A DNA stretch of 64,000 bases from positions 1 to 64,000 of IMG/VR virus record IMGVR_UViG_3300044247_000057; one strand, 5' to 3'. Made by a program: the position numbers and the translations under genes. This DNA is from a virus. Its lineage: Duplodnaviria; Caudoviricetes. This document shows positions 1,507 to 10,927 of the stretch, in pieces. A model generated the notes under the pieces. That model was given only the letters and a program-made list of their open reading frames with translations, did no database searches and was not told the DNA's origin. The stretch's first letter is position 1. The number at the start of each line of letters is the position of its first letter.

Positions 1507-1924
1507 GGAGCGGATCCTTCCCGGCCTGGATCATGTCCAACCACACATTCCAGAGCCTGTCTGGTGTAACCGGACCCAAGGTGGAAATGTGCGCGTCACC
1601 GAGCTCTCCCTCCTTGTTGATGAGGGAGTACCAGTGGCCGTACACGTAGCCCCGCTCGAACCGGGCCTTCATCTGGTCCCGCTCCGAGGCAGCCTCCTCG
1701 ATCCCGTAGACCGGAGCCATGTCCGCGAAGTGCTGGTCCGGGTCGATGGTCTGACCGAGGATCATCAGCTGCTCCCTGCCCATCGGGTAGATCCGGAAGA
1801 CCTTGTCCCCCGGCTTGATCCGACGCTGCCAGTCCATGACCCTGGCGTTGGCTGCTTCCTCGGCTGCTGCCTGCCAGCGCATGAAGTCGTCGAAGTCGTC
1901 GAAGACCAGCGGATCATCCGACAT
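1487..1924 (-). CDS. hypothetical protein (145 aa)
   Basis: Phage-like codon usage, overlaps neighbours in operon. Confidence 0.75.
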   Translation of the reverse strand: MSDDPLVFDDFDDFMRWQAAAEEAANARVMDWQRRIKPGDKVFRIYPMGREQLMILGQTIDPDQHFADMAPVYGIEEAASERDQMKARFERGYVYGHWYSLINKEGELGDAHISTLGPVTPDRLWNVWLDMIQAGKDPLREDPED

Positions 1925-2405
1925 GGTCCACCAGCCTCTTCAGACGCTCCGGCAGGTCTCCACCGAAGTGCTCCTCCTCCTCCGTGCCGTCGTCCATCAT
2001 GATGACGTCGTCGTAGATGAACGCGCCGTCTCCCGCCCTGAGGTAGGGCTGCATGGCGGAGAACCGCTTGTGCTTGGAGTAGAAGGTGACCATCAGGCAC
2101 TCGCTCACCCGAGGGTCCTTGCGCTCGAACAGCAGCTTCAGGCTGTACGAGGGCTTCTTCTCACCGGTCTCGCCGGACCAGTGGTAGCTGTCCGAGGCGA
2201 CCATCGCCCAGCCGGGGTCGAACATCCCCATGCTCTTCATCATCAGCAGCACATCGAGCGTCTGCCGAGGAGGAAGCTGGTTGCAGGGGATGACTGGCAT
2301 CGCGGGGTCGTTGGACAGGATCACCGCGTTGAACTCCCCCTTCTCCTCCAGCAGCTTGCGGAGGTTGGTCATCACGAGGTCGATGGGTGGTTCTTTGTCA
2401 TTCAT
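1914..2405 (-). CDS. hypothetical protein (163 aa)
   Basis: ATG with AAGGAG RBS and ACCTAC motif upstream. Confidence 0.8.
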   Translation of the reverse strand: MNDKEPPIDLVMTNLRKLLEEKGEFNAVILSNDPAMPVIPCNQLPPRQTLDVLLMMKSMGMFDPGWAMVASDSYHWSGETGEKKPSYSLKLLFERKDPRVSECLMVTFYSKHKRFSAMQPYLRAGDGAFIYDDVIMMDDGTEEEEHFGGDLPERLKRLVDHVG

Positions 2406-2799
2406 CTCTCTCCTTGGGTAGGTGGTGGATCTTGGTGAGCACCTCGACCAGTCCTTGCTGGTCGAGGTAGCCCATCACAACGTCGTCCCAGAACGGTGGG
2501 TTTCCCATCCGGTCGGAGTTCGGCGGGTAGAAGCCGACCTCCAGGCCTCCGTAGGCACCCCAGTGGGTGATGACGGAGACCTCCCAGCCGTTGCGCATCC
2601 GGACCATGGCGTGCCGACCACCCATCCACGGGTGGTCGACGATGAGCCTCATGCCGGGGATCTCCGGCAGCTCGAACTCGACCGCAACGAACGGCTGCAT
2701 GAAGTCCGGCACGTAGTCGGCCTCCGACCCGATGGGATGCGGGTCGGACTTCATCTCCGGGCCGAACTGACGTTCCCAGTAGTCGAACTCTCCGGTCAC
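2398..2799 (-). CDS. hypothetical protein (133 aa)
   Basis: GTGA overlap with upstream gene; coding-like composition. Confidence 0.75.
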   Translation of the reverse strand: MTGEFDYWERQFGPEMKSDPHPIGSEADYVPDFMQPFVAVEFELPEIPGMRLIVDHPWMGGRHAMVRMRNGWEVSVITHWGAYGGLEVGFYPPNSDRMGNPPFWDDVVMGYLDQQGLVEVLTKIHHLPKERDE

Positions 2800-9539: not shown

Positions 9540-9791
9540 TCAGAACAAGGTGGGCTGGCCGAGAGGCTCAACCACGATCTCGTCCCAGTACGGGGGTAGA
9601 TCGGTCCAGGAGCAGAAGAACCCTTCTGCCTGGATGTACTGGTCACGCGCCAGCTGAGCGACACGCTCGGCGTAAGGACCGAACTCTTCCTCACGCTCCA
9701 CGTTGCCGTCAGCATCGAACTTCCGGCGACGGACCATGAACGGATCCTCATCCGTTCGCGGCCTCAGAGACCGTTGGAACTCGCTGGTCAT
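9540..9791 (-). CDS. hypothetical protein (83 aa)
   Basis: ATG overlaps upstream stop (TGATG). Confidence 0.75.
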   Translation of the reverse strand: MTSEFQRSLRPRTDEDPFMVRRRKFDADGNVEREEEFGPYAERVAQLARDQYIQAEGFFCSWTDLPPYWDEIVVEPLGQPTLF

Positions 9792-10213
9792 CAGACGAAG
9801 TCCTTCGAGTCGAAGGTCTCCTTGACGACCTCGGTGAAGATCTCACCGATGGTCTGGGGCCTGGCTTTCGCCTCGTCCCAGGACATCGGCTCGCCGTCCT
9901 CCTCGCCGTAGGACTCCAGCCAGGCCTGCTCGCGCTCCAGGTCGCGGTCCTGAGCACGTTCGGCCTGCTCGTCGATCCAGTTCTCACAGGACCAGCTGCA
10001 GCCCATCTGGTAGAGCGAGAAGGACTGGAACTGGGCACCGCACCTCAGGCACCAGTGCATGCTGTGGTCGCCCAGCTTCTTGGCGCATCCGACACACGCG
10101 ATCTTCTCGTGCTCGGGATCGAACTCGTAGTCGCCCTCGTGCGTCCAGGTGAATCCGTTCTTGCACTGGAAGCAGGTGACGGCGATGTGCTCGACGGTGG
10201 GTGGGTTGGACAT
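9791..10213 (-). CDS. Cys-rich putative zinc-binding protein (140 aa), first gene of the leftward block
   Basis: ATG at 10213 with AAGGAG RBS; CFQC, CVGC, CLRC, CSWSC motifs. Confidence 0.8.
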   Translation of the reverse strand: MSNPPTVEHIAVTCFQCKNGFTWTHEGDYEFDPEHEKIACVGCAKKLGDHSMHWCLRCGAQFQSFSLYQMGCSWSCENWIDEQAERAQDRDLEREQAWLESYGEEDGEPMSWDEAKARPQTIGEIFTEVVKETFDSKDFV

Positions 10214-10238
10214 GGCAGAACTCCTTGCTAGAGACGAC

Positions 10239-10268
10239 AAAAGCCCCAATCCACGATGGATTGGGGCT
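10239..10268 (-). terminator. intrinsic terminator immediately upstream of the first leftward gene
   Basis: AGCCCCAATCCA-3 nt-TGGATTGGGGCT perfect 12-bp stem plus TTTT on - strand. Confidence 0.75.
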
Positions 10269-10324
10269 CGCTGCCAGATCGGACGATCCAGCAGGTTTTA
10301 GGCATGCTTCGCGCCTATGTCTTA

Positions 10325-10353
10325 ATTATAGCAAAAATAGGATGGATAGGCTA
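10325..10353 (-). promoter_or_regulatory. sigma-A-like leftward promoter
   Basis: TAGCCT-17 nt-TATAAT on - strand in an AT-rich intergenic tract. Confidence 0.65.
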
Positions 10354-10376
10354 GCCATTTGGGCCTATTCGGGCAT

Positions 10377-10499
10377 AAAAAAGCCGCCTCCGGGGGACTC
10401 GAACCCCTATCGCCACAACTGGCGGTGACCTCTTGCTCGGAGAGCGGCGGTGGGCCAGGATCGAAACCCTAGCGTGATGTAGGCGACTCGTGCGCCTAC
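10377..10499 (-). ncRNA. candidate structured small RNA with a tRNA-like 3' domain
   Basis: Two hairpins, then a multi-stem domain with T-arm GGGG-TTCGAGT-CCCC closed by GCCGC(T)CTCCG/CGGAGGCGGC and a T6 tract; upstream TTGCC-N8-GATAAT. Confidence 0.55.
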
Positions 10500-10549
10500 C
10501 TCTATTATCCCAGATTGGGCAACAAACAGCAAGAGGACGGGGGTCTCGG

Positions 10550-10927
10550 GTGAAGGTCTACCAGACCTCCCGCCAGTCCCGGATCCACTTCGACCCGGAC
10601 TGCAGGTACCTGTTCATGGGCAACCGGCGCAAGAACCCGGTCCAGAGCCTCGACCTGACCGAGATCCCCCACACCAAGCGGTTCTGCGTCGAGTGCAGCC
10701 CTCCAGACCTGCCTCAGCTGCCCAAGATCAGACACCGGCCCTGCCACATCTGCTACCCCGGCACCCGCAAGGCGAAGCCCTGCGCGCACAACGGTGGGGT
10801 GCTGGTCTTCGTCCAGAGCCACCAGACCAACCGTGCGAGGGTGTACGTAGCCCGGACCTACCGGAAGTGGCGGTGGCCCGAGAACGCAGGCGGTTCCCCT
10901 CTTGTGCCGGGACAGCTCGCATCCTAG
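10550..10927 (+). CDS. Cys/His-rich hypothetical protein
   Basis: GTG at 10550 after AAGAGG; H-x4-C, CxxC, CHIC, CxH motifs; start uncertain. Confidence 0.6.
   Translation: MKVYQTSRQSRIHFDPDCRYLFMGNRRKNPVQSLDLTEIPHTKRFCVECSPPDLPQLPKIRHRPCHICYPGTRKAKPCAHNGGVLVFVQSHQTNRARVYVARTYRKWRWPENAGGSPLVPGQLAS

Follow-up and report, generated by a model that had tools for sequence, protein, structure and literature searches.

A structured RNA family with a tRNA-like three-way junction and no anticodon loop in a group of metagenomic phages

Introduction

A 64,000-nucleotide stretch of DNA from an uncultivated soil phage (Caudoviricetes; virus record IMGVR_UViG_3300044247_000057), referred to here as the window, carries a heavily base-paired element on its minus strand between two divergent gene blocks. 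The locus raises the question of what this element is and why part of it resembles a transfer RNA (tRNA). The window covers the first 64 kb of a 77,886-bp IMG/VR record with a G+C content of approximately 64% and an estimated completeness of 97%. Its genes are oriented leftward as far as about 10.2 kb, whereas those beyond about 10.55 kb point rightward, and the divergent gap between them (336 nt, positions 10214–10549) houses the RNA gene, whose full unit, including the promoter, spans 10377–10532 on the minus strand. The first-pass annotation had proposed a self-contained, structured, tRNA-like noncoding RNA at this site. The analysis presented here bears out that proposal: the element has its own predicted promoter and terminator, its helices covary in related phages, and it matches no model of tRNA or transfer-messenger RNA (tmRNA). 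We consider it very probable that the element belongs to a real structured RNA family.

Results

The window RNA is predicted to fold into a three-way junction

Folding of the minus strand with RNAfold yielded a minimum free energy (MFE) of −55.3 kcal/mol (z = −2.64), a stability equalled by 2 of 200 shuffled sequences. All the helices previously listed from the letters alone were located at their places on this strand, and the MFE and centroid structures both contain every one of them. Read 5' to 3' on the minus strand, the unit consists of the following elements.

10527–10532, minus strand: −35 element TTGCTG, separated from GATAAT by a 17-nt spacer
10504–10509, minus strand: −10 element GATAAT, preceded by TGG (extended −10-like)
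10479–10499, minus strand: hairpin 1, GUAGGCG/CGCCUAC
10454–10473, minus strand: hairpin 2, containing two G-U pairs; its loop GUUYYGAU is conserved
10438–10448, minus strand: 5' strand of the closing stem, with outer GCCGC, bulged U at 10443 and inner CUCCG, pairing with 10383–10392
10425–10437, minus strand: joiner, 13 unpaired nt (AGCAAGAGGUCAC), a D-loop-like segment
10411–10424, minus strand: short hairpin CGCCA-GUUG-UGGCG, 5 bp, variable-arm-like
10393–10407, minus strand: T-arm GGGG-UUCGAGU-CCCC
10383–10392, minus strand: 3' strand of the closing stem, CGGAG GCGGC; 10 bp for the whole stem
10377–10382, minus strand: T6 run, which together with the closing stem forms the only terminator in the window phage

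The core of the RNA is, in this predicted fold, a three-way junction made of the closing stem, the unpaired joiner, the short hairpin and the T-arm. The T-arm displays the G53-C61 closing pair and a loop of the UUCRANY type, and the window RNA contains neither a 7-nt anticodon loop nor a CCA sequence. The two G-U pairs of hairpin 2 would be A-C mismatches if read on the plus strand, so that these pairs, as had been pointed out, are valid on the minus strand only. The additional description of hairpin 2 as T-loop-like was borne out in part: the likeness is confined to the letters, as the loop comprises 6–8 nt, and the hairpin is missing in several family members.

Related phages share the junction at the same genomic site

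Relatives of the window phage were sought through its DnaB-type helicase. Homologues of this protein form a deep family in a large protein collection, on contigs of approximately 77–83 kb. An alignment of 40 of them was used to fetch 80 viral and 80 metagenome loci, and the closest relatives were fetched by exact look-up; a single-protein search of viral contigs had returned no relatives, and it was the alignment-based searches that recovered them. The three closest loci, L082, L083 and L085, encode DnaB proteins 84%, 81% and 68% identical to that of the window and can be aligned with it across the whole gap. The four loci have in common the promoter, hairpin 2, the junction and a second, downstream RNA unit.

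A covariance model built from these four sequences (R1), a hand-written descriptor and a scan for T-loops were then used for the family search, which revealed L002, L003, L030, L035, L032, L288 and L289 as further members. The family thus comprises 11 sequences (the window and 10 metagenomic phage contigs) in 8 lineages, with DnaB identities of 36–84% to the window. In all 11, the junction lies 0.4–2 kb upstream of the helicase gene and on the opposite strand. Across approximately 1 Mb of related loci, the descriptor and R1 matched almost only these syntenic sites; the matches of the descriptor outside the family were two likely chance matches and one true tRNA.

The 5' hairpins are less constant than the junction. 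The pairs of hairpin 2 are kept in all four close relatives according to RNAalifold, and several family members lack this hairpin. At the site of hairpin 1, the window clade retains a hairpin whose sequence and length differ (L082, L083 and L085 have other hairpins there), and in L002, L003 and L289 hairpin 1 is missing and the RNA begins at the closing stem.

Compensatory changes maintain the three helices

RNAalifold analysis of the window with L082, L083 and L085 independently predicted hairpin 2, the closing stem, the short hairpin, the T-arm and the terminator, with 8 pairs that are compensatory, having changed on both sides. Covariation in related phages had been suggested as a check on the RNA, and across the 8 lineages compensatory changes were found in three helices. 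The closing stem occurs in 7 unrelated sequences, all of them paired. The short hairpin has six or seven unrelated stem sequences, likewise all paired, around a loop of 3–6 nt that is not conserved, and the T-stem exists in three variants, all paired. Some of the G-U pairs in the family are strand-specific, as they would be A-C mismatches on the other strand. Helices were parsed by script, and whole-family MAFFT alignments put the closing stems out of register, as did the R1-model alignment for the distant members.

Because the descriptor itself demands pairing, a shuffle control was run in which the AAG of the joiner and the T-loop were fixed and the other letters were shuffled, 3000 times per lineage. 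The three-helix descriptor was passed by all 8 lineages, compared with 0.07–0.5% of these composition-matched shuffles; per lineage, 2–14 of the 3000 shuffles passed and 0–2 reached the observed number of pairs.

Two unpaired segments are also conserved. The joiner keeps the consensus AAGNG(G)UYAC in 11 of 11 members, and the T-loop follows the consensus UNNRAGU, in which U1, R4, A5, G6 and U7 are constant throughout and positions 2–3 vary. The loop reads UUCRAGU in nine members, UUGAAGU in L289 and UGAAAGU in L288. A UNNRA turn with invariant U1 and A5, closed by a stem and capped by a base from another part of the RNA, is the generic T-loop motif of tRNA, tmRNA, RNase P and T-box RNAs, and the UNNRAGU pattern fits the signature of this generic motif rather than that of a TruB or TrmA substrate. 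When the fifth base from the AAG start of the joiner is compared with position 3 of the T-loop, the combination is G:C in 9 members, C:G in one and A:A in one. The C:G case is a double change in L289, where the joiner G has become C and the T-loop C has become G, which fits an elbow pair of the G19-C56 type. This one double change suggests a tRNA-elbow-like tertiary pair between joiner and T-loop.

The junction RNA has its own predicted promoter and terminator

The first-pass annotation had taken a TTGCCC as the upstream element of the promoter. This hexamer cannot be the −35 element, since it lies only 7 nt from GATAAT; the true −35 is the TTGCTG at 10527–10532, and transcription is predicted to start at approximately 10497. 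A simple promoter scan did not pick out the GATAAT site. A promoter-like site of the TTGNNN-17-NATAAT type precedes all 11 members, with a weak −35 in L002 and L032; the −35 hexamers of relatives, at the same spacing, read TTGCGT, TTGCAG, TTGCAA or TTGCAC. The extended promoter block NATAATAGAGRTA is conserved in L082, L083, L085, L288, L289 and L003. The start predicted for L002, L003, L288 and L289 is placed where the closing or outer stem begins, indicating that the 5' hairpins of the window clade are optional and that the junction is the conserved part.

All members except the window (10/11) carry a separate terminator hairpin and T-run after the junction. In L082, L083 and L085, this is a hairpin of approximately 35 nt with its T-run, located after the closing stem and cleanly deleted in the window. 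The window terminator consists of the closing stem and T6 alone because this hairpin has been lost; the closing stem runs directly into T6 in the window and into a spacer and terminator in the relatives. Units composed of promoter, RNA and terminator occur in tandem, three in L289 and two each in L288 and the window. The first protein gene downstream of the RNA differs between members; the RNA is therefore not tied to one gene, which speaks against a gene-specific leader. Judged from these sequence signals, the locus is a stand-alone small RNA gene of bacterial type, with its own predicted promoter and intrinsic terminator and no open reading frame (ORF).

The second small transcription unit of the window comes directly after the junction RNA and occupies 10236–10330 on the minus strand. 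It has an extended −10, TGCTATAAT, at 10325–10333, a GCGAAGC mini-hairpin, a stem of 10–11 bp with tandem G-U pairs and a perfect 12-bp terminator at 10242–10268, and it sits just before the ribosome-binding site of the gene at 9791–10213. This unit is conserved in L083 and L085, and similar ones occur in L288, L289, L290, L030 and L032. On the other side of the gap, a small ORF (GTG at 10550) comes first in the rightward block, ahead of the genes for the DnaB-type helicase, a primase and a PolIII-alpha polymerase. Positions 10429–10437 in the joiner and 10528–10536 in the −35 region form a perfect 9-nt inverted repeat, CCTCTTGCT / AGCAAGAGG, the latter stretch being, on the plus strand, the ribosome-binding region of the first rightward ORF. 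As L082 does not keep it, the repeat probably arises as a side effect of the −35 TTGC. Shine–Dalgarno mimicry, or pairing of the joiner with the −35/ribosome-binding region, was rejected as not conserved. A fold in which the joiner pairs with the closing stem's 5' strand was also rejected, being broken without compensation in L082.

Comparison with known RNAs

The element had been described as something other than a normal tRNA on account of its missing 7-nt anticodon loop and CCA, and database comparisons agree. Neither the window nor the full 77,886-bp record contained a tRNA or tmRNA called by ARAGORN, and Rfam 15 gave no match at the gathering score, so the expectation that no full tRNA match would be obtained held. 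At E up to 10, Rfam returned only noise, namely mascRNA at 18.2 bits and tRNA-Sec, the best match from the tRNA clan, at 14.2 bits (gathering score 47). The tRNA model RF00005 gave no match even at E = 10, in a search where only the top match within the tRNA clan is shown. The family is absent from the Rfam models and from the literature searched. The main text of a 2023 catalogue of 10,006 candidate viral RNAs contains tRNA-like candidates, none of them without an anticodon arm (PMC10690425).

Among known RNAs, class II tRNAs (Leu, Ser and bacterial Tyr, phage ones included) share with the junction RNA a canonical T-arm, a stem that closes the molecule beside it, and a hairpin of 5–6 bp with a 3–4-nt loop placed 0–3 nt before the T-arm, at the position of the long variable arm. 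The junction RNA also belongs to the phage's island of tRNAs and small RNAs, and in L003 it neighbours a genuine tRNA. It differs in having no D stem, anticodon stem-loop, 7-bp acceptor stem, discriminator or CCA; the one hairpin that could stand for an anticodon arm has the unconserved loop of 3–6 nt. Its closing stem varies from 4 to 10 bp across the family and is often bulged, with 0–3 unpaired bases beside the T stem. A lead is offered by the tRNA-Leu(CAA) of L176, whose anticodon loop and 3' anticodon stem resemble the CAAGAG..AC of the joiner.

The tRNA-like domain of tmRNA is alike in topology, with a closing or acceptor stem, an unpaired D-loop analogue, a capped helix and a T-arm, and it too has no anticodon. 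The junction RNA, unlike tmRNA, lacks G3:U70, GGUUUCGAC in the joiner, a fixed closing-stem length, GGAC before the T-arm and an ACCA-type end. Neither the window nor the other family members matched the tmRNA model RF00023 at E = 10, whereas the positive control, 83-nt reduced tmRNAs of the more distant relatives L047, L059 and L063, scored 56–64 bits; these lie in the same genomic neighbourhood in the wider phage group.

The mascRNA/menRNA model (RF01684) gave the best and only recurrent Rfam signal, at 18–26 bits in three members, below its gathering score of 42.5. The layout is alike (closing stem, small hairpin, T-arm), and the similarity does not go beyond shape. In mammals, RNase P and RNase Z release mascRNA from a long non-coding RNA.

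YrlA-type RNAs are likewise non-decoding RNAs with a tRNA-like module that includes a T-arm. The YrlA Y RNA (Chen et al. 2014) carries a permuted tRNA-like domain, with D and T arms and an acceptor stem-loop, on a Ro60-binding stem with GNCGAAN0-1G, and is encoded beside Ro60; such RNAs also occur in phages and have been proposed to engage proteins that recognise tRNA (PMC4201824). The junction RNA differs in the order of its elements, in the absence, by inspection, of GNCGAAN0-1G and in having no Rfam match. Identity with a Y RNA was rejected, as the layout is unlike that of YrlA and no TROVE/Ro60 gene was found in the 77.9-kb record, in a search in which control genomes were positive.

A clean match to an attP core had been named as evidence against the proposal, and none was recognised. 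No tyrosine integrase (PF00589) or serine recombinase (PF00239) is encoded in the whole record, and a 21-mer covering the T-arm and 3' strand had no match among the 185,579 bacterial and archaeal species whose representative genomes were searched. An origin-like array of DNA repeats was rejected as well, since no iterons are present; GATC clustering in the region was not notable either. IMG/VR classes the whole record as a provirus. This label is doubtful, given the missing integrase and recombinase, the absence of close relatives in bacterial genomes and a record size of 77,886 bp that is comparable to the 77–83 kb of free relatives.

Other small RNAs in related phages

Phages whose DnaB is approximately 33–35% identical to that of the window carry the reduced tmRNAs, at L047:1522-1604(-), L059:2135-2217(-) and L063:809-891(-), with look-alikes in L048-L053, L060 and L061. 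These RNAs, 83 nt in length, pass RF00023 (gathering score 47) with the middle 290 model positions deleted. They keep an acceptor stem with G3:U70, the GGUUUCGAC D-loop, a capped P2 helix, a T-arm and a CUCCAC(C) end. Judged by sequence, they look like tmRNAs cut down to the tRNA-like domain, with the mRNA-like and pseudoknot part missing; no description of reduced tmRNAs of this type was found in the literature searched. In L047, a near-threshold match to the manA RNA motif (52.1 versus a gathering score of 55.2 bits) lies at 1793-1975(-), between the reduced tmRNA and a tRNA, indicating that the small-RNA island also holds other structured RNAs.

Directly upstream of the junction RNA in L003, a class-II-like tRNA at L003:2913-2996(-) scores 45.8 bits with the Rfam tRNA model. 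Its 9-bp acceptor stem can be extended into a longer leader–trailer helix, its 'anticodon' loop has 6 nt, and ARAGORN reports it as tRNA-??? with a 2-nt anticodon. Another reduced tRNA-like RNA occupies the same region in L066 (~2445(-)), L072 (~2352(-)), L073 (~413(-)) and L080 (~2503(-)); in it, a 7-bp stem (GCCAGUG/CACUGGC) precedes ACAA, one hairpin and a T-arm, and there is no anticodon arm. ARAGORN does not call it, and in L066 and L080 it has no Rfam tRNA match at E up to 1. The first of the three tandem units of L289, at 2420-2526(-), has the same promoter type and a sequence unrelated to the junction RNA, and folds into a long, near-perfect extended hairpin (MFE −55.5 kcal/mol).

Among the matches listed, a loose pattern scan of IMG/VR yielded mostly true tRNAs, tmRNA ends and an unrelated, abundant viral element. 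The only look-alikes among these listed matches, L176 and L177, were rejected, both being real tRNAs. The abundant element is approximately 70 nt long, highly conserved and present in at least ~45 viral contigs (L166, L168, L171, L172, L179 and L180 among them; for example, L168:5429-5461). It contains AAGRGUAAC and a T-arm, GUGGG-UUCAAGU-CCCAC, and is unrelated to the junction RNA. ARAGORN calls no tRNA in it, and in L168 and L171 it has no Rfam match at the gathering score.

Discussion

What such an RNA might do has to be read from its shape and its setting. We tentatively propose, as the simplest and leading possibility rather than an expectation, that it acts in trans as a tRNA-shape mimic that occupies a tRNA-binding protein. 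Under this proposal, a small RNA of approximately 120 nt would be transcribed independently and early from a host-type promoter, at the point where the leftward early genes and the rightward replication genes diverge. Its predicted core retains the elbow and the acceptor/T-arm side of a tRNA, through the closing stem, the T-arm with its T-loop and a hairpin in the place of the variable arm, and the D-loop-like joiner would probably cap the T-loop. Decoding and charging are both beyond this RNA, which has no anticodon loop and no 3' end fit for aminoacylation. The distance from the junction to the ends of the RNA is not fixed, so it must be the junction that provides the functional surface. This surface would be bound by a protein that recognises the corresponding face of tRNA, candidates being a tRNA-cutting defence nuclease and a host enzyme that processes or modifies tRNA, and the RNA would titrate, block or recruit that protein during early infection.

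Phage tRNAs counter tRNA-cutting defences, and tRNA mimics include tmRNA, YrlA and viral tRNA-like structures. A decoy for anticodon nucleases, as the first-pass annotation had worded it, is unlikely, because the family offers no anticodon loop and the short hairpin lacks a conserved loop. The RNA could, as a matter of pure inference, act as decoy or inhibitor of proteins that read the T-arm, elbow or variable-arm side of tRNA. Septu and retron-Eco7 cleave tRNA-Tyr in its variable arm, and the tRNA-Tyr of phages may serve as decoy or supplement (PMC13096335, PMC11555353).

Several observations weigh against the proposed tRNA mimicry. L288, with A in both places, is out of register with the proposed tertiary pair, which consequently rests on a single double change. 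The variation of T-loop positions 2–3 (UUCGAGU, UUCAAGU, UUGAAGU and UGAAAGU) speaks against recognition by enzymes with a requirement for the canonical U55-C56. The family is small and its distribution uneven: the junction RNA is missing from relatives with DnaB identities of 38–48%, and two subfamily-specific pattern scans of IMG/VR found only contigs already known. No isolated-phage or bacterial relative was found, as searches of isolated phages with megablast (2 kb) and with blastn (the RNA) gave nothing or chance matches only, the best DnaB match among isolated phages, in Gordonia and Mycobacterium phages, reaches at most 27% identity (tblastn), and bacterial genomes contained no close DnaB relatives and no prophage relatives. 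Pfam searches of 30 window ORFs identified no tRNA-related enzymes. Finally, in L002 and L003 the unit stands directly before the first leftward gene with only the terminator between them, an arrangement that also fits a leader acting in cis.

Such a leader of the leftward early operon is the main rival explanation, although we consider it rather unlikely. It would be an aptamer-like or polymerase-directed element that sets read-through of the following terminator, whether as an attenuator, a riboswitch-like OFF switch or a put-like antiterminator. Its best support is the order of promoter, junction, terminator, ribosome-binding site and first gene in L002 and L003, together with the fused stem and terminator of the window. 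In addition, the window, L288 and L289 place two or three tandem promoter–structure–terminator units before the first gene, and more distant relatives have a short promoter–hairpin–terminator leader at the same place. Moreover, as the closing stem and T6 are the terminator in the window, folding of the junction would there equal termination. However, 9 of 11 members have another promoter after the terminator, which insulates the junction unit from the gene, and the downstream genes are unrelated between members. The unit of L030, L035 and L032 is embedded among consecutive genes of its own strand, and inspection by eye, with no systematic search for alternative folds, revealed no conserved antiterminator pairing. 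We regard as improbable the explanation that the molecule is a base-pairing small RNA, with the loops of its 5' hairpins (GUUYYGAU in hairpin 2) as the seed and a junction that only stabilises it or directs processing. The loop of hairpin 2 is indeed conserved in the window clade, and modules resembling tRNA are known that stabilise RNAs or flag sites of processing, as in the case of mascRNA, the best sub-threshold Rfam match. But L002, L003 and L289 have no 5' hairpins and yet keep the junction, joiner and T-loop; it is the junction that is conserved and hence under selection. No target with conserved complementarity was found, and the 9-nt match between joiner and −35 is lost in L082.

Maturation as a minimal tRNA-like molecule, by RNase P, 3' trimming and CCA addition, would leave a free 3' end to be charged or used as a primer. 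A true T-arm is present, the predicted 5' end of L289, counted from the likely start, is flush with a 7-bp closing stem, and the reduced tmRNAs of distant relatives have G3:U70 and an ACC-like 3' end. The family nevertheless shows closing stems of 4–10 bp with bulges, outer extensions and 0–3 unpaired bases by the T stem, has no discriminator or CCA and, in the window, a 3' strand that directly enters the terminator T-run, which makes this explanation very unlikely. Still slimmer are the chances of a decaying tRNA pseudogene or a site acting at the DNA level, such as an attP core or a replication origin, with no function as RNA. Relatives do carry tRNA genes at this place, replication genes adjoin it and the record bears its provirus label; yet compensatory changes keep three helices across 8 lineages, promoter and terminator are kept with them, and the G-U pairs are strand-specific. 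In addition, there is no integrase or serine recombinase, no occurrence of the 21-mer in the genomes searched, no prophage relative and no iteron.

Regardless of function, the junction RNA offers a small, clean three-way junction with a T-loop and a natural compensatory change at a candidate tertiary pair, which is useful for RNA structure work. With its shape kept by compensating mutations and the decoding parts dropped, it would represent a minimal natural tRNA-shape mimic. A broader speculation, which we hold to be unlikely as it stands, is that this soil phage lineage makes 'decoding-dead' tRNA mimics, namely the junction RNA and the reduced tmRNAs, as early weapons. Each RNA would then present one face of tRNA to a host protein without entering translation, and the junction RNA would titrate or block a tRNA-directed defence nuclease or a reader of the elbow or variable arm, which would make it a new type of anti-defence factor consisting of RNA only. 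If the RNA does bind a defence nuclease or processing enzyme, it would reveal which part of tRNA that protein reads and would add an RNA-only form of counter-defence.
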